From a virus (lineage: Duplodnaviria > Caudoviricetes), in the IMG/VR virus record IMGVR_UViG_3300024521_000001, positions 32,001 through 96,000 of that record: DNA of 64,000 nt. One strand, written 5' to 3'. The notes under the pieces were generated by a model, which ran no database searches, was not told where the DNA came from, and worked only from the letters and a program-made list of their open reading frames with translations. The position numbers and the translations under genes are program-made. Below are positions 2,533-57,012 of this stretch, in pieces (within the stretch, counting starts at the first letter, position 1; each line of letters opens with the position of its first letter).

Positions 2533-5500
2533 CTAGGGGGTTGGTGGTAGTTCGGTCGGGACTTCCGGTGTGACCGGAATATTTTCCGGAGTTACCGGAA
2601 TTGGTTCCATCTGCATCCTCGCTCCGGAACGAGTGGCTTTGAATCTGGATTGATTTCTCTCCCAATACAGTTGGTTGAGTTGGGTGTTTATCTCCTCCAG
2701 GTTTTTTACGCCTGGCATAGCTCTTGCAGCTTCGAGAAGACTTATTTTCATCCTTAAACTGTCCAGCCTTTGGGCAATGTTTTTTATGTCCATTGAGGGG
2801 CCAGGCTGCTCTTGAATGACTTTCAATTTGGACCAAAAAGCCGCTGGATCTTCATCTACGAGTTGAGCTTCGATGGCAGCATCCGTCGCTGCTTCGTATT
2901 TGTCGCCCAATTCCATGTTCACTCGACCCGCTGCATACGCCAGCATCTCATCTGGGTTCGGCGCGATACCTTTTTTGTCCACAGCGTCCCGAGCAATGTG
3001 CCTCTTTGCGACATTGAAATCCGAGACTTTCTGTTTCTGTTTCACAGGATCCAAAGCTCGCTGCACATGGTTAATCATGATTATGGTGTCGTGGGCGTCC
3101 TCCAACACTTGTCTGTAGTGCCGCTGATTGGTTGTTTCCGACTCCCCTTTATTCTTTTGGCCGTTGAATCGCCGTTGTTCCCGCGACAAATCCTCGTAGA
3201 AAGTGTCAACAGCCAAAGATCGTCTTCCCTCACGCCCACCTGGACGCACTAGCGAACTGAGTATGGGTACTCCTTCGAGCTCCTTAAGGGAAATCCTTCG
3301 ACTTGGAACACCTAGACCTAGAGTGTCTAAAATGTCAGGACCAAGCCCTCCAAAGAAACCTCTAATCGCATGGTCTATCCTTCTCGGGGAAGCCTGATTG
3401 GGAAACATATCACCAAGCATTCCAGCGAGTTTTGAGGTATAAGGTCCACGTTGGTCGCCGGGGGGATCGTTCAACTCACCGATGGGAACGATTGGGGAGT
3501 TTGTGAAAAACCGCTCGTTCGCAAATTGCTCCAGGACTACGTCCGGAATGACCGGGAGTGCCGCAGGATTTACTTGTTCCGACCATTGACCGAAGACTTC
3601 TATAATAGCTTCAGGATCTTGCCGATACATAGCGTCCCAGATTGCCTCCGGAACCGCAGTAAAGATAGTTCCCCATTCAAAGCCTCGTGGAATTTGCCAG
3701 ATGTGTTTGCCATCGTCGATGTTCCAGTAGGTGAATCGCTCCCAATAGGGCATGTCCGTGTACCACTCTTCGTCCTTGTTCAACCACCAAAGCGCAAGGG
3801 TGAGACTGGTCAAGCCCATCACTCCTCGAATGACCGTCCTTTTCGGCTTGCTCTTGAACGTCCTGAGTGTGAGGCGAGTACCTTGAATCTGTGCATTGAA
3901 GAACGGAACGGCCTGGTTGACTGCCTGGCCGACGCTTCCTCCTGCGGAGAAATCAACGGTGACCCGCTTTGTATCCAAGAGCAGCTGCAAGGATTGGGCG
4001 AAGGACATGGGTTGCCCTGGCTTCCAGCCCATTTCTTTTGCCCGAAGTTTCAGTTCGGCTGTTCTTGTGGCTGACTCTGGGATCTGCATGATCTCTCGTA
4101 AGTGATCAATAGGGTTCGTGACGACCTTCATAACCCGTCCTCGGAATAATCTCTTAGCGGCTCTCCTGGTAAATCGAATGTCTATACCAAGAGGCTGAGA
4201 GACTTCCGCTCCAAGCCGACGCATCAGATCGTAATGTTCTGATTGTTTTCCATGCCTAATAATGTCCTGCATCTGGAAGGTCCAGGCAGCGGCCAGCTCT
4301 GCTGGATTGGCATTACTCGCTGTCTGCATGAAAAAGGTCTGAAGATCTCGGGCGGGATTCCGTACCCAGGCAAAGGAAGCCCGTAATCCAGTCGTTCCAA
4401 GACGGAACAATCTCGCCGGTTTACCGAGGACAATATCCCATCCTTTAGGAAGGCGGTAAACATCCAACCCCGACAAGGACGCGTACAGTTCCGGATCAAT
4501 CTGAAACCATCTTACGACTCCGTTTTCCACAAGCGGAATGATCGGGTCCATCCCTTTCGGGTGTTGAGCGGGGATGAAAAAAGTCAGGATCGAATCCAGG
4601 GTTTCTTCGGGGGATTCTAGTTTCTGGAATCCCTCAGCCTTGAGCAGAACATCTTCTGCTGTTTCACCGATTTCGATTCCCTTTTGTTTCAGAACACCAA
4701 GAACCTGTGCCGTACTTATGGTGACTGGAACAACCCCACGATCGACTTCCTCGATCATATGGCCCATTCCTTCGATGTGTCTCAACTTCAGGATTTGATC
4801 AATGATAATTCGTTGATGGGTTTTAAGGATGATATTTGTAGCATTCTCTATCATCACTTCAAAGGGATCTCTGATTCTGCGCCCGGAACCTCTCATTCTG
4901 TTGGTGATGCTTCCGGTCGACCATCCCCCGCGAAGTCTCCTGACGTAGCCAGAGTCTATATCGTCCAACACGCGGGCCAAGGGGATGTAGTCTTGGCTTC
5001 CCTCTATGATTTTATCGAGGGCTTGCTGTGTGATTAAACCACCTTGAACAGCGTAATTGAGTACCCCCCGATTCCACTCATAGACCTTCTGGGCAGCTCT
5101 CTGAAATTCCGGAGTCTCAAAATGTTCTACAAGAAATTCAGCATCGTTTTTCGAGATTCCAGGGTTCTTATTCTCCTTCCATCTTTCTATGGCACGCCTA
5201 CCCCAGAGATAAAGAGTAAATTCTTCTCTCTGATCTTTCACCAAGGCTCCAGCATCTTCCAGACTCGGCCCAACAGGAACGCCAGCGATATTGATCATAT
5301 GATCTTCAACCATGTAGGCCGCTCTTGCAGTATGGGTGTGGCGAAGGGCATGAAATGTCAACTCTGGATTTTCCTCAATCGCTATCCCTGATCCTTTCAG
5401 GGTTGTAGCAATGCTGGTCAAATGCTCATATGCGGATCCGGCCTCGACCCATTTTTGATAGGAGAACAGATCCAGGATTGAAAGAAGTCTCTGCTTGACG

Positions 5501-8500
5501 GTCGGAGTGATAGCGGCCTTCATTGCTTTGCCCCGCTGCACAGCACCTTGAAGTCGCCATTTGGTAACGGCTGACTTGGCTTCGTTGAAGGCGTCCGCGA
5601 TCTTTGGGTTGTCCTTCAGGAACTCCTTAACAAACCATCTGTGGGTCTGAGGGGCTTTTCGAGCTGCTTCAATATCGGTTGTCAGTTCGAGTCGGATGAA
5701 CTCAGCAAATCCTTCGCGCTTGTATCCACCCTCCGGGTGCTTGCTTTTGTATAAGTCCTTCCCCATTTTCACGAGTTCAGCCCGCACTACCGGAGGACGA
5801 GTTTCCCAATGGCTTTTTGATCCTCTGAGGTATCCGAATACTGCTTTATCAAGTGCATGGCCCATCTCATGGGCAGCAGTTGGAAGGTTGTTCGCAACTC
5901 TCAATCGAATGACTTCTGCTAAAACCTTGAAGATACCTCTGGCCTTCTTCCTAAACCTGTGTAAGCGGAACGGAACTGTTCGATCGGCCGCGGTGAGCAC
6001 ATTCTCGAAAGACTTAATGATCTCAGGTGCACCCATTGGCTTACCCTTATCCGTCAGTTGGTCTAGCATTTCCATTTCCATATCCCGTTCTGCATTGAAT
6101 CCCAGGATTGGATCTTCCACATTCTGCTGAAAATCCGCTGGAAGCTGGTCTAAACCAAACCCTGTTGCAGACTCCGTTTTGAACGGGAACAACACTTGTT
6201 CTGGTGATGCTGGAAGCACAGAAGCAATTCCTGGAGCACCACCACCCTCTGGAGAAGGAGGTAATGTTCCAGGTTCCGCTGTCTCTCCGGGCATGACATC
6301 GGGATCACCGTATGTAGCGGCCTCCGGACGTACATCTGGCTGCATGCCAGTCCTGTCTTTAACCGCTTTGTGGCGTTCGAGGAGTCGCCCGAGAGCGTTT
6401 GGACCTTCGACTGAATCAAGCGGAATGAAAAATCTCCGCTTGTAATCAATCTTTTCTGATTTCAAACCAAAGGTTTCCAGTTCCTCCTTGTTGTAATTTC
6501 TACCAGCATCCAGCTCCATGCGATCTTCTCTTTTAACCTTGGTCATGAGAAGTCGCCAACCGTTGTCCAGCTCGATCATCGACTTGTTGTTCAAGACCAA
6601 GTCGTAGATTTCCTGTGCTGTGGCATTACCTAACGGAGTACCGATGCCAAGTCTCTGCTTAAGCCCTCCTATTTCTCCGGGTTGGACCGCAATACCAATG
6701 TGAGAGCTACCGTCGTCCAGAGTTGCTCGAACCACACCCAAGCGTCTGATCTGCTCGTCTCCCGTGACCTTGTCATAGATCGGGAAAATGGGTGCTGTTA
6801 GAAGGTGAACCGGTTTCTTTACGCTATCGGGGATCTCGGAGTATTCTTTGTTCCATTGTGTTTCAGCGGCTGCTTCCTCCAGTTGGGTGAAGTTCTGATC
6901 TTCCTCAAGTTGGTAAGCCTCGACCTCATGTGCATTTCCTGTAGGACTTGAGAGGAGGACCTGGGCCTGATAACCCTCTTTCCCGGCCTGAAGTGCTTGA
7001 TGGCTCCATTTTGATTTCTCGGTTCTGTGAGCAACGTAGATCTTCTCGCTCCGCTTATTGACGTAATAGCCCATCGGCCTAGTCGTCATAGGACTGTCGC
7101 CAAAAGCCATCTTCGGTACGGGAAAGTCCCCTTCAAGCTCGATGAGAACAGTCTCAGCCTTGGATTCCGGGTGGGTATAAACAACTTCTGGCTTGCTTTT
7201 CAGCACAAGGCTAGTTGGACGACGGTTGCGCTCGTCGGTGACTGGTGTCACTCCAACGTCAAAGGTTCCATCTTGTTTCGCTATTTGAGATATGCGCTGA
7301 TACTCGGCATAGAAATGTTCAAAGACACTGTTTTGAACATCAACGTGAAGGGCCATGATCCGATTGAGAAAGCGATTCACATCCGTTAAGTGCGCCCTTC
7401 TGAGCTTGCCATCGGCCGACGCAATTCCCATCCGCTGTAGGAGCTGCATCCCTGTCTTCACACCGTCAATGGCGTCCCTCTGTATCGCTCTGTAGGTCTC
7501 AGAAAGGGCCGCTTCTCCGTACTGGTCGGTAATGTCTTCGACTTCAAAGAGGCTTCCACCGAGCGTTTCCCGACCGCCCTTAGTTAAAGCACCAAGGCTT
7601 GCCAGTCGTTTAGCTACGGTATTGATCAGGCGTTCTTGGCCGCGTAAGTTGGTCCTAAGTAACTTGATGATCGGAGCCTCAGCCTGAAAAGAACGATGCA
7701 CTCGGCCAAAGGCTTGCATCTGTTGATCCGCGCTCCAACTGAGCTGCATCGCGTAGAAAACACGACGTTGTTGGTTCTTTGCGGTTTTGTCAGAGTGTAG
7801 AGAAATGCCCGTCGAAGCTGCGCCGGTGATGATGGCAATTCTCACGTCCTGATTTTGAAATCTGGCAGTCTCGTGTAAGTTGAGATCTTTGAAAGAGACA
7901 CCCTTTATGCTTCGACGTTCGGGTTTACCGTTTACTATTCTGCGGGGACGACCGGAGATCTCTGCAATGTTGCTCACGCCGAAGTGATCGACGATCTCAT
8001 CCATAGGATTGACAGGAAGTTGGATATCAGAGACCTTGTCAATTAAGTCTTGTTGCTTCGCCAAGTTTTCTCTGTTGATGAGAGGTTCACCGTCCTGAAG
8101 AACCGGAACTGGACTCGTTCTCCCGGTCGCTGGATCGTACTTATCCTCGTATTGTTCGAGCGGGAATTGGCTCTCGATCAGTTGCACGATCATTTCTCTG
8201 GGCGTGAGATCCAGATTCTCTGCATCTTCCCCTGCTGCTGTGGCTTTCGTGATCGCTCGATCCGTTTGAGCTTGATTGGTGTTATAGAGACTGATCACCG
8301 TAGATCTTCCAGCTGCCAGATCCTTATCCGCAGCAGCAAGTAAATCAGGCAACTGATAACTCATCATGAGCTGGAGGAAAAACTGCTGCTGCCTGGCGTA
8401 GAACTGACTAAATGCAGTCCCGCCTTTTTTCTGACCGGCGTTTTCCTGTGCTTCCTCAAACGCTGTTAGGAGATCGTCCCACAGATCAGCCATTTGGTTG

Positions 8501-11500
8501 TATTGTCCGACCTGGAGATCGTTGAGGTCATGGGTGATGGTCTCGTAATCAACGCCCTTATAACTGATTGACCGGCTAATGTAAGCACCGATCGACTTCA
8601 GGTCTCGGGAAAGCATTTCCATGGCCCCGATACCACCCCGCGTCATGGCCCCGAGAAAGTCTATGAAGGTACTGAAAGGACCTCCAGCTCCCCATAGTCC
8701 AAGACGCTGCATGTAACCCATATTGCGCGGGACGGTAGCTCCTGTGGCGCTCACATAGACTATTTTGGCCTTGGGGAACGCTTCTTGTACGCTGAGTCCC
8801 ATAGCCCCACGATCGGTCCCGGCCTTATCACTGACAGTCCCGCCATGCCCCGTACCGATAGCGTTCTTCATGGCATGAGCCTCATCGAAGACAATGACAC
8901 CGTCGAAATCTTTGCCTAGCCAGCTCTCTAGCTGCTTGTAACGGGCTTTTGTGCCTTTCCACCCATGCGCGAGTAGAGAATAAGTTGTGAAAAGCACCCC
9001 GTCTTCATCGGCGATCTGATCTTTTGTCTTAGTGATGCCATGATGGATCAGGTCCATTGGCACACCGACGCCTTTAAGATCTCTTTCGGCATCGGCTCTT
9101 AATTGGTGAGAAACGGAGACCCAAACGGCCCTCTTTCGTCCCCGGTTGAAATTGTCGTAGATGATCCCGCCAACTTCTCTACCTTTCCCGACCCCTGTTC
9201 CATCTCCGATCCAGTACCCAGGTGTTTTGCCATCAGCCATGGTCTGAGAATGCCTTTGCCCTGCGTAGGTGACAGCTTCCATCTGTACGTCGCTCAGTCT
9301 GCCTTCTTGGACTACTTCAGGTGGTAGGTTTGGAGTGTAGGTAACGTCTGGAGCTAGGACACTAGCCATCGTTGAACTCTCAACGATATCGGCAGGATGA
9401 GGTTGGGAACCTTCGAAGAGGGCTTTTTGAACGGTGTAGGCCGAGAAGACTTCTTCTTCTTCTACAGCGGATTGACGAGCTTCTTCAATGCGCGTTAAAC
9501 CGGGAGATACAGGTCCAACTCGTCCAGCACCAGGACCACCAGGCTCGCCGCCCACGTCGCCAGGTCTTCTTCCTTCTCCGGTATCGGGCTGTCTTCCCGT
9601 AACATCAGCTTCTCCAACTCCCGCAACAGGACCTTCGGATTCCGGTTCCACACGGCCAGCCACCGGTCCCACTGTGCCGGTGACGGCTCCCCCGACCCCG
9701 GTGGGAGTTGGAGGGATGCGTTCTCGTCCCCCAGGGCCTCTGCCAGTAGCACCAGGAGAGGGTACTCCTTCGGGAGCGGGACTCGGCCGAACTCCTCCTG
9801 GAGTAGCTGGAATGCCCGCTTGTTCTGCTGGTTTAGAAAGTCGCCCACTTATATCCTCTTTGGCTAAAGGTCCAAGGAGTTTGAGAGCCTCTTTGGGTGA
9901 TAAGTCTTTCCCTAGTATAACATTATTGAGCTGATCTATGCGGGTATCGCCTGGAGTTGGACCCGTCTTGTCAATGACAATGATGTTGTTATCAAAAGTA
10001 GTTCCATACTTCGCATAGTGCTTCCCACTGATCCCGATGTTGGCCCGAACAGTGTACTTACCTTCTATCTTTTTCCACCACTTCTGAAAGTTGGGCCTGT
10101 CGTGGGCCATTCCTTGCCCTACAATGGCCACCAGTCGACCGCCTTCATTTAGCCTAATCAACGCCTGTTCAACGTGCTTTGCGCCATGTAGCGTAGCGTG
10201 GCCCTTGGTTTTACCCCCTGTTGCGGAGAAGGGTGGGTTCATTACGATAACGTCAGGTTGGATTTTCGGGTCAAGAGTGCTGTTCAAAAGCTCTGCATCC
10301 ACTTGTTCTGTTTTGAACCCTTGGTTTCTGAGGATCTGGGCCCGTCGATCGGTGAGTTCATTGACAGAAACATTGGCGCCGGCCAGTCGCATTTGTACGG
10401 CGATATTTCCAGTTCCTGCCGATGGCTCTAACGCAGTCATTCCAGGCGTGATACCGGCTGCATAGGTAGCGGTAAAAGCCTGACCAGGAGGAGTGCTGAA
10501 CTGTTGAAACTCCTCTTTCTCTGTAGTTCTATCTGTTTGCCTGGGTAATCGAGCGGTGATCTCCAGCAATCTGTCGTAGGTCCCCTCCGGATCGTTGAAA
10601 TCTACGATGGCGGGATCCGCTGCCTCGATCATCATATTGACACCGGCTTCGGCGGCATCCTGAGAATCACTTGGAGTGTATTTCCCTTCTCCCTTCTCTC
10701 CTCCAAATGCCTCGTTTGCGATCTCTGTGAGCCTGGGGTTGCCAATGGTTTCGCCAGCTGCCAGTTCGTCCTGGATGGTCTGAGCAATCAGCTGGTGAGG
10801 ATTGAGTCCTTCCCCGGCTTCTAACTCAGCCTCCTCTTTCATGTCTTTTTCCAGTTCCCTAATAGCTCCTAATAACTCGGCTTCTCTTCCAGTAAGCCCC
10901 TTCAATCCGGTTTCCTCTGGCGTGGGAGCTATGGCTGCTGTCGGTTCCTGCCTAGAGACTTCGCTCACAGGGACGCTTGTGGCCCCTACTGCCCCCGTTG
11001 CAAGCGAGACCATCTCTACCCCTTCATCGTTAACGAAGGTATCCATCACATCGACTTCCTTGCCTTTGTAGATGACCGTCTCTCCCGTGGCGATAGGCAA
11101 AGGTGTTACGCCTAGAGGTGTCATACCAGGGATGGCCTCAACTTGAGGGGTTACTGGCTTTTTGGCTGCTGGCTTTTTGGCTGCTGGCTTGTCAGGCGTG
11201 GGAGCTATTGCAGTAGGTAAGACCTCTTCTACTGGCGGTGTCCCTCTCGCGGGGACCCCAAACCGTTCTGCAATTTCATCAACCTGTTTTCGGATAACCT
11301 TGGAGGCAACGATAGTCTTAGGAGGAAAAGGAATTTCAGTTCCAGCTCCATACCTCCAGTTCGTGTATTCCCCCGCCCATCGTTTCTGCTCGGGGGACCT
11401 TAAACCGTCGACGTATTCCGCGCTCGCCTGACGCGCCTGATCCAAGGGAACTGGAGGTGCTACGGCCTCTTCAGCCGGGGTAACCACAGAAGCCACCTCT

Positions 11501-13665
11501 GGGGCTACGGCTTCAGTGGGCGGAGCCTCCTTCTCGCGCTCTCTTTCAATCTGTTTTTCTTCCTCCGCCTTCACCCTCATTGCCCCGGCCGGTGGTTCTT
11601 TCGGTGGGGCAACACCTTCTTCTTCTGCCGGTGTTGGAGGTACGGCAGCGGGGGGAGCGGATGCAGCGGGTGGTATCGCTGGCGGTTGCTGGACTGTCTC
11701 GAAGGGTAAAGGCTTTTGAACCCCTGCGGCTTTTACCATCGCCTCTGTGCGAACTTTCTGTGAGGCTTCCGCGTAAGACTTATCGAAACGCTCCATGTTT
11801 CTATAGAATTTGTCCATCTCATCCTGGGTTTCGAATCCCATTTCCCTCATTCTTCGAATACCCATGGCGGACATCATCATGTTTGCAGCAAACCCTAGTA
11901 TTCCTCCAGCACCAGCTCCTTCTGAAACCCCTTCCCAATAATCTCTTTGCTCGTCAAAGGTCATCTTTGCTGTTATGTTCCCACCTAACTGCTGCACAAG
12001 CTCCTGCACGCCTTCTTCGATTGATCCAGCAAATCCGGATCGCAACATCCTGGTTGCATTTCCTCCGGTAGCCTTGTTGAACCTCGAGAACGCCATGCCA
12101 ATAGGAACCGCTTCAGTTGATCCAGTAAGAAGCCCTCCGACCCAAGCGGCCAGGGCCGCTTCGTCATTAGCTCCGTGCTGTTTAGCTTCCCTGTAAAGGG
12201 CTGCTGATTCTGTTGCACTTCCAGCCAACAAAGGAACGGCCCAAGATGAAAGTCCAGCCTTAGATCCAAGCCCTCCAAGTAGGTAGAATCCCGCCAAACT
12301 GCCAGCTCCCTGAGGGAGAACTGATACTGCGAAAGATTCTGCAAACACTGGATTTTGAGGGAAAGCCTTAACCAGTCCTGCTCTTAGCGATTCTCCAAGT
12401 TGGTACATGTCTTTGTCGGTTGGAGATTCATAGGCTTTCTCTATTTCTTTAGGAGTCCTTACTCCAAATTCTCCAGGTAGCTTGAAGTCGAATTTAATGG
12501 CAAGTTTCTCTAACGCAGATTGGGCAATGGCTGGTGTTTGAATAACACCAGCGAAGATATTCCCAAGACCCATGGCGATTCCACCTATGGACTGTTCCAC
12601 TCTCCCCAATTCCTCGGGGCCAAGGTCTATCTTGGCCATGTCTACTTCTCGTTTACCCCAATCTTTGAAGTCCTTCCATGTGGTCCTCGCAAGTCCTGGA
12701 AGTTTACTCATAAGCACCATTGGGTGAGCGGCATCAATCCAATCTATGGCAAGGGGATCTTTCTCTGGTCGCTGCTCAGGAGTAGAAATTTGACGATGGG
12801 TATTTAACTGCCCTTCCTTCAGAGCGGCTTGTAGTTCCGGAAAGGGTTTCCCCGCTTTTGCAAAGGCATCAATGGTTCGAGAGATATTCAGATCGCCCTG
12901 CCACTTTTCATCCAGCATGGACTGGCGGCTTTTATTATCCATGCCGACATAGTCCTGGTAGTCATCTTCGGCATGGACCGCATCTTCCCACCTACCGCCT
13001 TGAAATTTACTTTCCAGCTGGTACATCCATGTTCCACCATCCTCTGTCTCAAAGGCGTACCGCGCTCCAGGTGTTCCTTCATCTATCACGGGCGGTCTAT
13101 TGAAGTTGAATCGACCGGGCCGACCTCCCATCACTAGAGGTGGACTGTAGCCTGACGGGAGCTTTGGTGTGACCAACTCCGCTAGATCGGGTTCGGGTTT
13201 CACTCCTGAGACCGCTAGATCGGGTTCGACTCCTGGGACCGAAGGTTCCACCAGTTCTGGAACTGGTGGGATGGTTTCCCCAATTTTCTGATGAGCAGAC
13301 AGCAACGCAGCAGGGGGAAGTTCCATCTCCTTTGGCTTTTCCTCTGGCGTAGGAGCTATCGTTGCAGCGGGCGCAGCCTGGATCCGTTGAGCAGCTCCAG
13401 TAGGAGCTAGACTCGGAGTCGGAGTCGGAATTGGAGCGGGTGCAGCTGGCATCCGGCCCCACTTGAGATTCCAGATCGCCGCTTTCGTGGCATCGGGTAT
13501 GTCGAGAGGATCAAGAACTCCCTGTAGGTTTTTGCCAGTGTAGTTGGTCCTAAAGACATGATCGGATATCTGAGTTTTCGACCCTTCTTCGATCGCAAGG
13601 GGGCGCAGGATTCCCTGGAGTGCATCCCGACGTTTTTGCTTGGGTCCCGTCTGTTCTTCAGCCAT
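2533..13665 (-). CDS. Giant virion-ejected polyvalent protein (DarB-like): amino-MTase, Strawberry-notch SF2 helicase, zincin peptidase, LPD38-like C-terminus
   Basis: EPSAGTG and MNPPF; GDGTGVGKGRE, FDEAH, YVSATG, QAFGRVHRS; AHEMGH..EGFAEF; VDFSAGG..PFFNAQIQG..IPRGFEWG; last internal-protein gene. Confidence 0.85.
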   Translation of the reverse strand: MAEEQTGPKQKRRDALQGILRPLAIEEGSKTQISDHVFRTNYTGKNLQGVLDPLDIPDATKAAIWNLKWGRMPAAPAPIPTPTPSLAPTGAAQRIQAAPAATIAPTPEEKPKEMELPPAALLSAHQKIGETIPPVPELVEPSVPGVEPDLAVSGVKPEPDLAELVTPKLPSGYSPPLVMGGRPGRFNFNRPPVIDEGTPGARYAFETEDGGTWMYQLESKFQGGRWEDAVHAEDDYQDYVGMDNKSRQSMLDEKWQGDLNISRTIDAFAKAGKPFPELQAALKEGQLNTHRQISTPEQRPEKDPLAIDWIDAAHPMVLMSKLPGLARTTWKDFKDWGKREVDMAKIDLGPEELGRVEQSIGGIAMGLGNIFAGVIQTPAIAQSALEKLAIKFDFKLPGEFGVRTPKEIEKAYESPTDKDMYQLGESLRAGLVKAFPQNPVFAESFAVSVLPQGAGSLAGFYLLGGLGSKAGLSSWAVPLLAGSATESAALYREAKQHGANDEAALAAWVGGLLTGSTEAVPIGMAFSRFNKATGGNATRMLRSGFAGSIEEGVQELVQQLGGNITAKMTFDEQRDYWEGVSEGAGAGGILGFAANMMMSAMGIRRMREMGFETQDEMDKFYRNMERFDKSYAEASQKVRTEAMVKAAGVQKPLPFETVQQPPAIPPAASAPPAAVPPTPAEEEGVAPPKEPPAGAMRVKAEEEKQIEREREKEAPPTEAVAPEVASVVTPAEEAVAPPVPLDQARQASAEYVDGLRSPEQKRWAGEYTNWRYGAGTEIPFPPKTIVASKVIRKQVDEIAERFGVPARGTPPVEEVLPTAIAPTPDKPAAKKPAAKKPVTPQVEAIPGMTPLGVTPLPIATGETVIYKGKEVDVMDTFVNDEGVEMVSLATGAVGATSVPVSEVSRQEPTAAIAPTPEETGLKGLTGREAELLGAIRELEKDMKEEAELEAGEGLNPHQLIAQTIQDELAAGETIGNPRLTEIANEAFGGEKGEGKYTPSDSQDAAEAGVNMMIEAADPAIVDFNDPEGTYDRLLEITARLPRQTDRTTEKEEFQQFSTPPGQAFTATYAAGITPGMTALEPSAGTGNIAVQMRLAGANVSVNELTDRRAQILRNQGFKTEQVDAELLNSTLDPKIQPDVIVMNPPFSATGGKTKGHATLHGAKHVEQALIRLNEGGRLVAIVGQGMAHDRPNFQKWWKKIEGKYTVRANIGISGKHYAKYGTTFDNNIIVIDKTGPTPGDTRIDQLNNVILGKDLSPKEALKLLGPLAKEDISGRLSKPAEQAGIPATPGGVRPSPAPEGVPSPGATGRGPGGRERIPPTPTGVGGAVTGTVGPVAGRVEPESEGPVAGVGEADVTGRQPDTGEGRRPGDVGGEPGGPGAGRVGPVSPGLTRIEEARQSAVEEEEVFSAYTVQKALFEGSQPHPADIVESSTMASVLAPDVTYTPNLPPEVVQEGRLSDVQMEAVTYAGQRHSQTMADGKTPGYWIGDGTGVGKGREVGGIIYDNFNRGRKRAVWVSVSHQLRADAERDLKGVGVPMDLIHHGITKTKDQIADEDGVLFTTYSLLAHGWKGTKARYKQLESWLGKDFDGVIVFDEAHAMKNAIGTGHGGTVSDKAGTDRGAMGLSVQEAFPKAKIVYVSATGATVPRNMGYMQRLGLWGAGGPFSTFIDFLGAMTRGGIGAMEMLSRDLKSIGAYISRSISYKGVDYETITHDLNDLQVGQYNQMADLWDDLLTAFEEAQENAGQKKGGTAFSQFYARQQQFFLQLMMSYQLPDLLAAADKDLAAGRSTVISLYNTNQAQTDRAITKATAAGEDAENLDLTPREMIVQLIESQFPLEQYEDKYDPATGRTSPVPVLQDGEPLINRENLAKQQDLIDKVSDIQLPVNPMDEIVDHFGVSNIAEISGRPRRIVNGKPERRSIKGVSFKDLNLHETARFQNQDVRIAIITGAASTGISLHSDKTAKNQQRRVFYAMQLSWSADQQMQAFGRVHRSFQAEAPIIKLLRTNLRGQERLINTVAKRLASLGALTKGGRETLGGSLFEVEDITDQYGEAALSETYRAIQRDAIDGVKTGMQLLQRMGIASADGKLRRAHLTDVNRFLNRIMALHVDVQNSVFEHFYAEYQRISQIAKQDGTFDVGVTPVTDERNRRPTSLVLKSKPEVVYTHPESKAETVLIELEGDFPVPKMAFGDSPMTTRPMGYYVNKRSEKIYVAHRTEKSKWSHQALQAGKEGYQAQVLLSSPTGNAHEVEAYQLEEDQNFTQLEEAAAETQWNKEYSEIPDSVKKPVHLLTAPIFPIYDKVTGDEQIRRLGVVRATLDDGSSHIGIAVQPGEIGGLKQRLGIGTPLGNATAQEIYDLVLNNKSMIELDNGWRLLMTKVKREDRMELDAGRNYNKEELETFGLKSEKIDYKRRFFIPLDSVEGPNALGRLLERHKAVKDRTGMQPDVRPEAATYGDPDVMPGETAEPGTLPPSPEGGGAPGIASVLPASPEQVLFPFKTESATGFGLDQLPADFQQNVEDPILGFNAERDMEMEMLDQLTDKGKPMGAPEIIKSFENVLTAADRTVPFRLHRFRKKARGIFKVLAEVIRLRVANNLPTAAHEMGHALDKAVFGYLRGSKSHWETRPPVVRAELVKMGKDLYKSKHPEGGYKREGFAEFIRLELTTDIEAARKAPQTHRWFVKEFLKDNPKIADAFNEAKSAVTKWRLQGAVQRGKAMKAAITPTVKQRLLSILDLFSYQKWVEAGSAYEHLTSIATTLKGSGIAIEENPELTFHALRHTHTARAAYMVEDHMINIAGVPVGPSLEDAGALVKDQREEFTLYLWGRRAIERWKENKNPGISKNDAEFLVEHFETPEFQRAAQKVYEWNRGVLNYAVQGGLITQQALDKIIEGSQDYIPLARVLDDIDSGYVRRLRGGWSTGSITNRMRGSGRRIRDPFEVMIENATNIILKTHQRIIIDQILKLRHIEGMGHMIEEVDRGVVPVTISTAQVLGVLKQKGIEIGETAEDVLLKAEGFQKLESPEETLDSILTFFIPAQHPKGMDPIIPLVENGVVRWFQIDPELYASLSGLDVYRLPKGWDIVLGKPARLFRLGTTGLRASFAWVRNPARDLQTFFMQTASNANPAELAAAWTFQMQDIIRHGKQSEHYDLMRRLGAEVSQPLGIDIRFTRRAAKRLFRGRVMKVVTNPIDHLREIMQIPESATRTAELKLRAKEMGWKPGQPMSFAQSLQLLLDTKRVTVDFSAGGSVGQAVNQAVPFFNAQIQGTRLTLRTFKSKPKRTVIRGVMGLTSLTLALWWLNKDEEWYTDMPYWERFTYWNIDDGKHIWQIPRGFEWGTIFTAVPEAIWDAMYRQDPEAIIEVFGQWSEQVNPAALPVIPDVVLEQFANERFFTNSPIVPIGELNDPPGDQRGPYTSKLAGMLGDMFPNQASPRRIDHAIRGFFGGLGPDILDTLGLGVPSRRISLKELEGVPILSSLVRPGGREGRRSLAVDTFYEDLSREQRRFNGQKNKGESETTNQRHYRQVLEDAHDTIIMINHVQRALDPVKQKQKVSDFNVAKRHIARDAVDKKGIAPNPDEMLAYAAGRVNMELGDKYEAATDAAIEAQLVDEDPAAFWSKLKVIQEQPGPSMDIKNIAQRLDSLRMKISLLEAARAMPGVKNLEEINTQLNQLYWERNQSRFKATRSGARMQMEPIPVTPENIPVTPEVPTELPPTP

Positions 13666-51445: not shown

Positions 51446-51652
51446 TTAATGTCTCCTTGACTCACGACTGGACTTGCGGGCTTTCTCTCGCTTGTGGTCT
51501 TCTCTTTGTTTCTTCGCAGCGCGGCCATAGACTGTAGTCCCGGCTCGCTTCTTGAGCGATTGCACACGCTGATCCCGCGCAATTTGAGCGTCCATTCGTT
51601 TAATCACGCCCTTTTGTTCAGCGGAAAGATGTGGACTGAGCTTCTCGGCCAT
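51446..51652 (-). CDS. Small basic protein 4
   Basis: Ends KARKSSRESRRH. Confidence 0.7.
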   Translation of the reverse strand: MAEKLSPHLSAEQKGVIKRMDAQIARDQRVQSLKKRAGTTVYGRAAKKQREDHKREKARKSSRESRRH

Positions 51653-51655
51653 GGG

Positions 51656-51997
51656 TTATCTCCCTGACTTGCGGGCTGAGTCACGACTGGACTTGCGGGT
51701 TTTCTTTCGTAAGGGCTTAAGACCAATTCTACCCCGCTCAAAAGGAACTTTTGGACTCCTGGGTTTTCTGCCCTCCTTGGTTCGTCCTAAGCCGATATAG
51801 CTGTGCTTCTTGAGCTCTCGCTTCTTGAACTGCTTTGGAATGATCTCTTTTTTGATGAACATTGAGGCCATACTGCCAGACCCCCGAGGAACATCGCCTT
51901 TGGGAGCAGGGCGGCTTATTCTCTCGGACTTCATCTTGAAGCCAGCCTTCTTTTGCCCTTTTTCCCTCAATGCTCTGATTGCGTCTTTCCCAGGCAT
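51656..51997 (-). CDS. Small basic protein 3
   Basis: Ends KTRKSSRDSARKSGR. Confidence 0.7.
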   Translation of the reverse strand: MPGKDAIRALREKGQKKAGFKMKSERISRPAPKGDVPRGSGSMASMFIKKEIIPKQFKKRELKKHSYIGLGRTKEGRKPRSPKVPFERGRIGLKPLRKKTRKSSRDSARKSGR

Positions 51998-52000
51998 AGG

Positions 52001-52354
52001 TTACCTCCCTGAGCTTCGAGTTGACTTGCGGGTGGATTTGCGAGCCTTCTTCCTCATGCCAACAGGAAGCGATTCAGTGGCTCCCCTGGCTGCTCCCCCT
52101 CTCGCTGCCTCTCTAGCTTCCTTGAGCTTCTTCTGCCTTTCTGTTTCGGCTTTGGGAAACACGGCTCCTCGAAGTGTCTGACCAATGCTTCTGCCTGCAC
52201 CGAGGACAATGTCGGAAACGCTGCGCTTGGGTGGGGGATTCTTCCGGACCATTTCGTGACCGGCACGTTCACTTCGACCGGCCTGGATATCGGCGGCTCG
52301 TTGAGCCACGGTCGCTCCTTTTGGGAGCGGTTTCCTTTTTGTTGACTCTGCCAT
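52001..52354 (-). CDS. Small basic protein (first of array)
   Basis: Ends KARKSTRKSTRSSGR; AGGAGG RBS. Confidence 0.7.
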   Translation of the reverse strand: MAESTKRKPLPKGATVAQRAADIQAGRSERAGHEMVRKNPPPKRSVSDIVLGAGRSIGQTLRGAVFPKAETERQKKLKEAREAARGGAARGATESLPVGMRKKARKSTRKSTRSSGR

Positions 52355-52493: not shown

Positions 52494-52547
52494 GCTGTCA
52501 GGGGAGTTATGCTACACTCTCGGTGTTCGTTTGAGTTTTTCTATCCT

Positions 52548-52583
52548 AGAGGCGGTAGTTGGTTGGTCCTGGCTACCGCCTCT
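52548..52583. terminator. 11-bp stem hairpin after the PLA2-like gene
   Basis: AGAGGCGGTAG-N14-CTACCGCCTCT. Confidence 0.45.
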
Positions 52584-52589
52584 TTTCCT

Positions 52590-52970
52590 TTATGGGCCAG
52601 TCCTGGGCCACTTCCATCCAAAGCCCCATCGAAACGGAGCCGGGATAACACCCATGCCGCCGATCTGCACACCCAGGAACATAAGCGGGGCCATCACCAG
52701 TCGAGGAACGGCCTTCGGGTAGTTTCGCCAGTTGCCTAAATCACGGAGTTTTAGAAGAGGGACCCTCTTCGTTTTGAATGTTCACCAAAATAGAGCAGCG
52801 TCAGCCTTCACGCGCTGCCAGTATGTCCCGCCCATCCAGTAGGCCAGATCGTGCGCGTAACAGCATTGGCGCCAGTTCCCATCAAACCACTTACTACAGC
52901 CATCGAAATGGAAGTCGTAGTCGGTTTTTATCAAAGCAGAATGATCATCGTTGCAATACCCGCACCCCAA
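52590..52970 (-). CDS. PLA2-like protein with in-frame UGA at 52782-52784 (recoded or pseudogene)
   Basis: DGCS..WRQCCYAHDLAYWMGG..RVKADAALFW-UGA then in frame ..APLMFLGVQIGG..PFRWGFGW..TAA. Confidence 0.7.
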
Positions 52971-53299
52971 CCGCCCAGGTCCCAGAGGGACTTCTTCAGG
53001 GTGTAACGCGGGTCCTGCAAGGAGATGATCGCACGTTGCTCTAACTCCTGTTGACTTTCACTATTGTCGATGAGGTCTTGTAAGATCAGCCCTCTGATCT
53101 TAGCCAGCTTATTGGCATCGAAGATCTCCCGGCCGGCAATCACAGCCATCATGAAAGCTGTAGCCATGACTTTACCCAGGATGCCCGGATCCGCATGGGA
53201 CAGCGGCTCGGCCAGGAACCTCCAAACCATCATCCACACTCCGAAAGCTGAGAAGTAGTGGATTACGAATCGCTTGGCGATATGCTTTCTTTCAGACAT
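52931..53299 (-). CDS. Membrane protein
   Basis: Three hydrophobic segments; REIFD..KSLWDL..W.AG. Confidence 0.65.
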   Translation of the reverse strand: MSERKHIAKRFVIHYFSAFGVWMMVWRFLAEPLSHADPGILGKVMATAFMMAVIAGREIFDANKLAKIRGLILQDLIDNSESQQELEQRAIISLQDPRYTLKKSLWDLGGWGAGIATMIILL

Positions 53300-56763: not shown

Positions 56764-56940
56764 ATCCACTCCTTTGAACGGTTTTGGCGTTATTCGGGGA
56801 GCCGCCGAACTCTCACCCCCGACGACTCCCCTACCTGTGAAGTCCCGGACACACGGCCTGCGTGAACAAGAACCGTGGACAGACTCCACCAGGGATACTA
56901 GCACAGACGGGTGTGTATGTCGTTAAAAGAATTTAAGAGG

Positions 56941-57012
56941 GGGATCATACGGGAATCGAACCCGTGTCACCTGATTGAGCGTCAGGTATCTTTGCCAGTT
57001 AGACCAGGACCC
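56941..57012 (-). tRNA. Atypical/degenerate tRNA-Glu(CTC)
   Basis: GGGTCCT-G-GTCT..AGAT-A-CCTGA CGCTCAA TCAGG-TGAC-ACGGG TTCGATT CCCGT-ATGATCC; lacks U8, has G33, one acceptor mismatch, no CCA. Confidence 0.65.

Follow-up and report, generated by a model that had tools for sequence, protein, structure and literature searches.

A gene for a phospholipase A2 (PLA2)-like protein, interrupted by a single in-frame UGA codon, was identified on the minus strand of the stretch of DNA from an uncultured marine phage that was analysed here (the window), which is 64,000 nucleotides (nt) long and comprises bases 32001-96000 of a 108,390-bp virus record. Comparison with related sequences indicates that the SelB machinery of the host probably inserts selenocysteine (Sec) at this codon, which is residue 51 of the protein. 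The record was rated as complete by CheckV and contains terminase, portal and internal-virion-protein matches. The gene consists of 114 codons (52934-52590) with the TGA at 52784-52782, and decoding of the UGA would result in a PLA2-like protein of 113 residues. In the minus-strand frame, ...ADAALFW is followed by the TGA and by 63 sense codons, TFKTKRVPLL...PFRWGFGWKWPRTGP, up to a TAA, and a perfect hairpin, GAAGAGG-GTC-CCTCTTC (52770-52754), begins exactly 11 nt past the UGA. A sequence-only reading of the window had pointed to ADAALFW-TGA, to the 63-codon continuation ending in TAA at 52590 and to a perfect 17-nt hairpin 11 nt after the UGA, all of which were confirmed. The gene is made up as follows.

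52590..52934, minus strand: the PLA2-like gene, with a TTG start (52934-52932), 50 codons, the UGA, 63 codons and the TAA (52592-52590).
52785..52934, minus strand: the part before the UGA, with the DGCS, CCxxHD, Y, GG and ADxxL residues of the PLA2-like catalytic core and the model helices 22-34 and 38-54.
52782..52784, minus strand: the in-frame UGA, the proposed Sec codon (residue 51), preceded by UGG in every case.
52771..52781, minus strand: the 11-nt spacer from the UGA to the hairpin, fixed in length and variable in sequence.
52754..52770, minus strand: a hairpin resembling a selenocysteine insertion sequence (SECIS), with a 7-bp stem and a GUC loop (GGUC including the closing pair), within codons 56-61.
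52593..52781, minus strand: the part after the UGA, with a long variable loop modelled at low predicted local distance difference test (pLDDT) values, a third helix and a conserved GVxxGG...FRWGFGW end.

The UGA is conserved among close relatives of the gene and corresponds to a cysteine in the wider family. Relatives were compared at the DNA level in seven viral contigs and seven metagenome contigs; L014 and L015 end short of the UGA codon and fall outside its counts. TGG-TGA was present in all 12 rows covering the codon (8 of 8 in a smaller first set), each with at least 89% amino-acid identity. Contigs from three further runs (X7, X12 and X6), which come from three studies (one with the label cold seep, one with marine sediment and one without a label) and which may overlap with the 12 rows, had no differing letter at 52782-52784 or 52754-52770 and differed at 12-24 other places of a 501-nt stretch. 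L013 (L013:731-1081), the nearest Cys-form relative, with 72% identity and an unusually long loop of equal length, has TGC at the UGA position. An exhaustive HMMER search resulted in 870 homologues at E<=1e-3, and the UGA column was occupied by Cys in 33 of 33 and then in 148 of 148 aligned homologues, the latter representing the best 150 of the 870 minus two split pieces. The UGA was written as C in the alignment query, and the column is fixed regardless of this by the ungapped flanking match (D45, L48). This alignment, which had been proposed as a check, also agreed with the family consensus that the sequence-only reading had given, the 148 homologues reading ADxxLxxCV...MxxGVRxGG...RWGYGW with the invariant Cys at the UGA column. 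As judged by the alignments, the UGA form and its Cys homologues represent a classical Sec/Cys pair, and because this pair is found with the UGA kept across relatives, sequencing error is excluded. Within the phage lineage, the Sec form seems to have evolved from a Cys form.

The substitution pattern demonstrates that the frame downstream of the UGA is translated. Based on Nei-Gojobori counts over the 11 full-length UGA rows, the ratio of non-synonymous to synonymous substitution rates (dN/dS) was 0.17 before the UGA and 0.26 after it, and likewise 0.26 over the 18 codons separating the UGA from the next in-frame TGG. Minimal codon changes after the UGA were 27 synonymous versus 14 non-synonymous (p=4e-8, with 25% synonymous expected), and those in the first 18 post-UGA codons 13 versus 6 (p=8e-5). 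Absence of purifying selection after the UGA had been named beforehand as evidence that would speak against recoding; such selection was found, as these values indicate. No further stops or frameshifts were present in any of the UGA rows compared. The part after the UGA aligned to the C-terminal part of full-length homologues, and a match to phrog_6098 spanned the UGA, extending over residues 25-106 of the read-through protein. In gene calls the gene appears as two pieces, one of 67 aa (P0004) and one of 63 aa (P0003); in the homologue search the two best matches were such split pieces of 63 and 67 aa, and the remaining ones listed were whole, with both halves covered. One contig (X17), which covers 52507-52778, comes from a library with a metatranscriptomic label; DNA carry-in is possible for this library and transcript ends are not visible in contigs, so the contig is no evidence of expression.

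The hairpin has the layout of the element that directs Sec incorporation in Escherichia coli fdhF. In the fdhF sequence (NC_000913.3) a spacer of 11 nt separates the UGA from a 17-nt hairpin topped by GGUC, and the phage element shares the 11-nt spacing, the 17-nt length and the GGUC top, together with a Sec/Cys homologue pair as in predicted selenoproteins; the phage loop is 3 nt long whereas that of fdhF has 4 nt. These features agree with the comparison with fdhF made in the sequence-only reading, which also named the bulged U that is missing here. No element other than the hairpin appeared in the centroid fold of the 101 nt around it. Related phages, in which the joint presence of UGA and hairpin had been suggested as a check, have the UGA in 12 of 12 rows, and the hairpin folds in all 13 UGA-clade rows that cover it. 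The spacer varied at 8 of its 11 positions among UGA rows and was constant in length. The energy of the hairpin alone was -7.8 kcal/mol and that of a variant -10.0 kcal/mol. The bacterial SECIS (bSECIS) model, as set out in the legend of Fig. 2 of PMC13188914, specifies a loop of 3-9 nt, an upper stem of 4-16 bp, a G in the first two loop positions, a UGA-to-loop distance of 16-37 nt and an energy <= -7.5 kcal/mol. When these rules, a bSECIS test having been called for earlier, were applied by hand, the hairpin conformed to them, with a loop of 3 nt, a stem of 7 bp, G then U opening the loop and 18 nt from UGA to loop. By chance, 22 of the 4014 TGA trinucleotides in the 108-kb genome (0.55%) precede a perfect hairpin of at least 7 bp with bSECIS loop and spacing. 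One pair changed from A-U to C-G, a compensatory substitution, in L006, L011 and L012, and 96% of cells were paired compared to 52-69% in slid controls, a value reached by 0 of 500 shuffles. The palindrome was also considered as a plus-strand terminator, which was rejected because the T-rich tail consists of the variable spacer, with the T run missing from three rows, and because the site is not the end of any plus-strand gene.

A second small gene with an in-frame UGA was found in the same phage.

G000:C1:107918-108190 (locus L022:919-1191), plus strand: second small in-frame-UGA gene, 11.9 kb past the end of the window.

It reads ...DGW-UGA-YDS..., with TGG-TGA-TAC in 12 of 12 close viral relatives and TGT at the UGA column in a distant relative (L034). 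Here too a hairpin follows the UGA, with a GGUC loop in most relatives; in G000 itself the stem has 10 pairs, including G-U pairs. Since two unrelated genes of one phage carry a like signature, a SelB-type mechanism is likelier than a gene-specific accident. Genome-wide screens for an in-frame UGA plus hairpin, in which the codon-usage score separated frames weakly, returned these two sites; everything else lay at gene junctions or was noise out of frame. TGG stands directly before the UGA throughout the UGA rows of the two genes (52785-52787 in the PLA2-like gene), and Trp occupied this column in none of the 148 Cys homologues of the PLA2-like family (again the best 150 of 870 minus split pieces); the codon in the Cys relatives is ATA in L013 and, for the second gene, TAC in L034. 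The UGG may be part of the recoding context. A wider interpretation, by which the phage has a selenoproteome of at least two unrelated UGG-UGA genes with SECIS elements, translated by the Sec machinery of the host, with Sec in place of a structural disulfide cysteine and not of a catalytic redox residue in the PLA2-like protein, and with UGG within the recoding signal, is possible and at present tentative.

The protein is described here as PLA2-like and not as a member of PF09056, a label chosen because no curated model reached its threshold. The positions D11, C13, C24, C25, H28, D29, Y32, G35, G36, D45 and C51 were invariant, some of them nearly so, in the alignments of 33 and 148 homologues, and the CCxxHD set corresponds to the PLA2 pattern. 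The family profile matched the group XIII PLA2 4aup over DGCS...HDxxY with E=0.17. Pfam gave no family for the window protein at E<=1; PF09056 matched 2 of 34 family members (best E=0.0017, below the curated threshold), and NCBIfam gave no name for five homologues. Atlas features of the homologue P0005 comprised only unnamed bacterial clusters at 0.9 or more, with PF09056 clusters at about 0.8. An AlphaFold (AF2) model built from 149 sequences had a pLDDT of 88.2 and a predicted template modelling (pTM) score of 0.79, with three helices (22-34, 38-54 and 78-92) and residues 55-75 as its sole weak part. This is the loop whose codons form the hairpin, and it is 36 residues long here, whereas the loops of the 148 homologues have a median length of 15 and reach 34 at most. 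The best fold match in the PDB was the bacterial secreted PLA2 7ygk, a weak one (template modelling score 0.51, E=3.3), followed by a rice PLA2; in the viral structure library BFVD the matches, many of them weak, were mostly PLA2-named phage proteins and parvovirus VP1 (best E=2.5e-3). With secreted PLA2s (PF09056; 7ygk, 4aup) and the PLA2-like domains of phages and parvoviruses the protein shares DGCS...PD, C-x-x-H-D-x-x-Y and, in the model, a three-helix core; it differs from them in its family's own C-terminal GVRxGG...RWGYGW and in having no signal peptide, and the E-values of the fold matches are all weak.

In the model, H28 faces D45 in an antiparallel helix pair, and residue 51 should therefore be near C24/C25. 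In the homologues, the Cys at residue 51 would lie where the second core helix ends, adjacent to the CC pair in CCxxHD, and this cysteine of the UGA column is probably structural. Secreted PLA2s have a characteristic disulfide pattern, and by analogy with it Cys24 and Sec51 are probably cross-linked, a selenylsulfide replacing a disulfide. We infer lipase activity for the protein, which could act in lysis, in entry or in something else.

TGA is otherwise a normal stop codon in this genome, as the sequence-only reading had maintained: it terminates 85 of the 171 ORFs chosen greedily, the portal gene among them, and is the commonest stop. Analysis with ARAGORN identified two tRNA genes and no suppressor tRNA in the phage genome.

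Window 56939-57012, minus strand: tRNA-Glu(CUC) gene, one of the only two tRNA genes of the phage.
G000:22620-22696, minus strand: tRNA-Met gene, the other one.

The read-through protein had no match in a word-based protein search, in which the only match of the 50-aa N-terminal piece was its own cluster, P0004. Among cultured-phage records (n=50,697) nothing was found by blastn with 2 kb of DNA or by tblastn with the protein. The runs holding the sequence were labelled seawater, sediment, cold seep and marine sediment.

Site-specific Sec insertion, the principal claim of the sequence-only reading, held in every comparative test that was run, and we consider it the likely explanation. In the mechanism proposed, host SelB with GTP and Sec-tRNA(Sec) would bind the 17-nt hairpin 11 nt past the UGA, Sec would be delivered as the ribosome reaches the codon, and translation would go on to the TAA at 52590. 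Ribosomes that lose to release factor 2 would yield a 50-residue fragment without the third helix and the conserved C-terminal part. Sec would substitute for the family-invariant cysteine in a cross-link near the CC of CCxxHD. Both the use of the host SelA, SelB, SelC and SelD proteins and the identity of the inserted residue are what we infer from these comparisons.

Several observations weigh against Sec insertion. The clade with the UGA is a narrow one (identity of at least 89%, the N-terminal piece forming one 90% cluster of six members), and conservation of the UGA is therefore partly due to shared descent. The stem is perfect and lacks the bulged U of fdhF, and its energy is borderline, -7.8 kcal/mol being only just below the -7.5 kcal/mol threshold. 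Only one of the seven pairs covaries, in three rows that probably reflect one shared event, three pairs never vary, and the count of covarying pairs was reached by 268 of 500 shuffles. Third positions within the hairpin were not significantly more conserved than others (1 of 6 versus 43 of 106 varying, p=0.40), nor was the difference significant in a local comparison (3 of 17 hairpin positions versus 19 of 41 other positions varying, p=0.07). The Cys-encoding L013 keeps a weaker hairpin of 5 bp at the corresponding site, shifted by one base (-6.7 kcal/mol), and part of the palindrome may therefore simply reflect the encoded peptide; the L013 hairpin is either a precursor or a remnant of a SECIS. 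A permissive Rfam scan of 52650-52850 yielded nothing beyond one row at chance level (E=6.3). Neither tRNA-Sec (RF01852) nor the SelB winged-helix domain had a match in the phage record, and with no suppressor tRNA either, decoding must rely on the host; scans of 185,579 species genomes with the protein and the terminase revealed no prophage relative and no host lead. Most known selenoproteins have Sec in a redox-active site, and a structural position would be unusual.

Read-through of the UGA by a standard tRNA, leaky or programmed, is an unlikely explanation, if the likeliest of the alternatives, and would place Trp or another standard residue at position 51. The UGA of the phage Qbeta coat gene is read by near-cognate tRNA-Trp, and a similar event here, with the hairpin slowing the ribosome or stimulating the process, would agree with translation of the downstream frame and with the UGG directly before the UGA in both UGA genes. 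Insertion of Trp would, however, remove an invariant residue, since all 148 homologues have Cys in this column and L013 has TGC; the UGA of the second gene also falls at a Cys column, and the geometry of the hairpin is of the SelB type.

It is very unlikely that the UGA acts as a true stop, with the 50-residue peptide as the product or with two halves made separately and then assembled. The division by gene callers into P0004 and P0003 would fit such an arrangement, as would the GTG found right after the TGA in some relatives and the in-frame GTG-ATG at 52697. In six rows (the window, L001-L004 and L007), however, the TGA is directly followed by ACA, not a start codon, and the 18 codons after the UGA that are under purifying selection (13 versus 6) lie well upstream of the GTG-ATG at 52697. 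Splitting the protein at this point would moreover break up the second core helix where the invariant Cys lies.

A ribosomal hop is highly improbable, whether as a 3-nt slide of peptidyl-tRNA-Trp from UGG to UGA that leaves out residue 51 or as a 57-nt TGG-to-TGG bypass like that of T4 gene 60, the first alternative raised in the sequence-only reading. The gene does resemble gene 60 in the matched TGG...TGG, 57 nt apart, that flank the stop as possible take-off and landing codons and in the nearby hairpin, and the UGG before the UGA in both genes, at a column with Trp in 0 of 148 Cys homologues, would speak for a hop. The 57-nt bypass was nevertheless rejected because the 18 codons that it would skip evolve as coding sequence (dN/dS 0.26; 13 versus 6) and because L013 translates a loop of equal length without any stop. 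Both kinds of hop would delete the invariant Cys. In gene 60 the take-off site and stop lie inside the hairpin, whereas here the hairpin begins 11 nt after the stop, and the take-off site lies outside it.

A nonsense mutation fixed in the lineage, with the gene decaying, or an assembly or base-call error is barely credible. The narrowness of the UGA clade, with at least 89% identity, could be read in this way. Mutation (the second alternative of the sequence-only reading, as a recent event) and error were rejected because the TGA is kept across assemblies, being present in 12 of 12 separately assembled sequences and in the contigs of three runs, a comparison that also answers the earlier concern about base calling, and because dN/dS is alike on both sides (0.26 downstream, 0.17 upstream), with no further stops or frameshifts. 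Reassignment of TGA as a sense codon throughout the phage or host (code 4 or 25, or stop recoding as in large phages), for which nothing speaks beyond the in-frame TGAs in two genes, has a negligible probability given that TGA is the commonest stop (85 of 171 ORFs, portal included), that there is no suppressor tRNA and that 108 kb contain only two convincing in-frame TGA sites.

Sec insertion as proposed here would differ from that in bacterial selenoprotein genes in that the phage genome lacks its own Sec machinery and in that the protein is PLA2-like and not an oxidoreductase, with Sec at a probably structural Cys. Sec insertion is so far known in cells and in two poxviruses. According to the available portion of PMC8310308, molluscum contagiosum virus and fowlpox virus encode glutathione peroxidase selenoproteins that use the host Sec machinery, the fowlpox SECIS lies within the coding region, and these poxvirus glutathione peroxidases are the only viral selenoproteins described. 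The phage gene would share with them the reliance of a viral gene on host Sec machinery; the poxvirus genes have a eukaryotic SECIS and represent a captured cellular selenoprotein, whereas here the virus infects bacteria and the hairpin is of the bacterial type. No paper reporting a phage-encoded selenoprotein was found in the literature, supplementary lists, which lay outside the search and might name the family, not included. The available portions of PMC9402790 and PMC5029168 contain no phage selenoprotein, and in that of a 2026 review (PMC13188914) the words phage, virus, viral and phospholipase are absent.

The PLA2-like gene is flanked by the following features.

52931..53299, minus strand: upstream gene of 122 aa with three hydrophobic stretches, its TGA overlapping the TTG of the PLA2-like gene (TTGA).
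52548..52583, minus strand: 15-bp hairpin a few bases past the TAA of the PLA2-like gene, kept in relatives.

The TTG at 52934 is the likely start of the PLA2-like gene, and the TTG at 52970, at which the ORF list starts, is less so; in the Cys relative L013 the start is an ATG, located two codons before the position of TTG-52934. Because of the stop/start overlap TTGA, the upstream gene and the PLA2-like gene are probably translationally coupled. The upstream protein had no family match in Pfam, PHROGs or NCBIfam and, based on its hydrophobic stretches, may be a membrane partner or a holin-like protein. Fusion of the two proteins by a -1 frameshift was considered and rejected: the overlap contains no slippery site, and the changes upstream of the TTG in L009 and L010 are synonymous in the frame of the upstream gene and not in that of the PLA2-like gene. 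The 15-bp hairpin marks the end of the gene unit; it has a T-run on the plus strand only, with no U-run on the PLA2-like gene's own (minus) strand. Directly downstream of the PLA2-like gene there is a run of small, very basic K/R-rich ORFs (51446-52354, minus strand), and elsewhere in the window one ORF of 3710 codons is present at 2533-13665 (minus strand).

If Sec is indeed inserted, Sec codons and SECIS elements can evolve in phages themselves, which then come to depend on a non-essential host pathway and a trace element; this would have a bearing on host range and on the ecology of phages in marine sediments. Such genes would systematically be split by gene callers. A PLA2-like fold with Sec at a probably structural Cys would represent a new kind of selenoprotein and a natural test case for the selenylsulfide, and the module of UGA, spacer and hairpin is compact (31 nt) and suited to reporter constructs. 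Under the wider, tentative interpretation given above, a selenylsulfide could form or persist where a disulfide would not in this PLA2-like protein, which has no signal peptide and would be made in the reducing cytoplasm, and synthesis of an active, membrane-attacking enzyme would also depend on the selenium status of the host.

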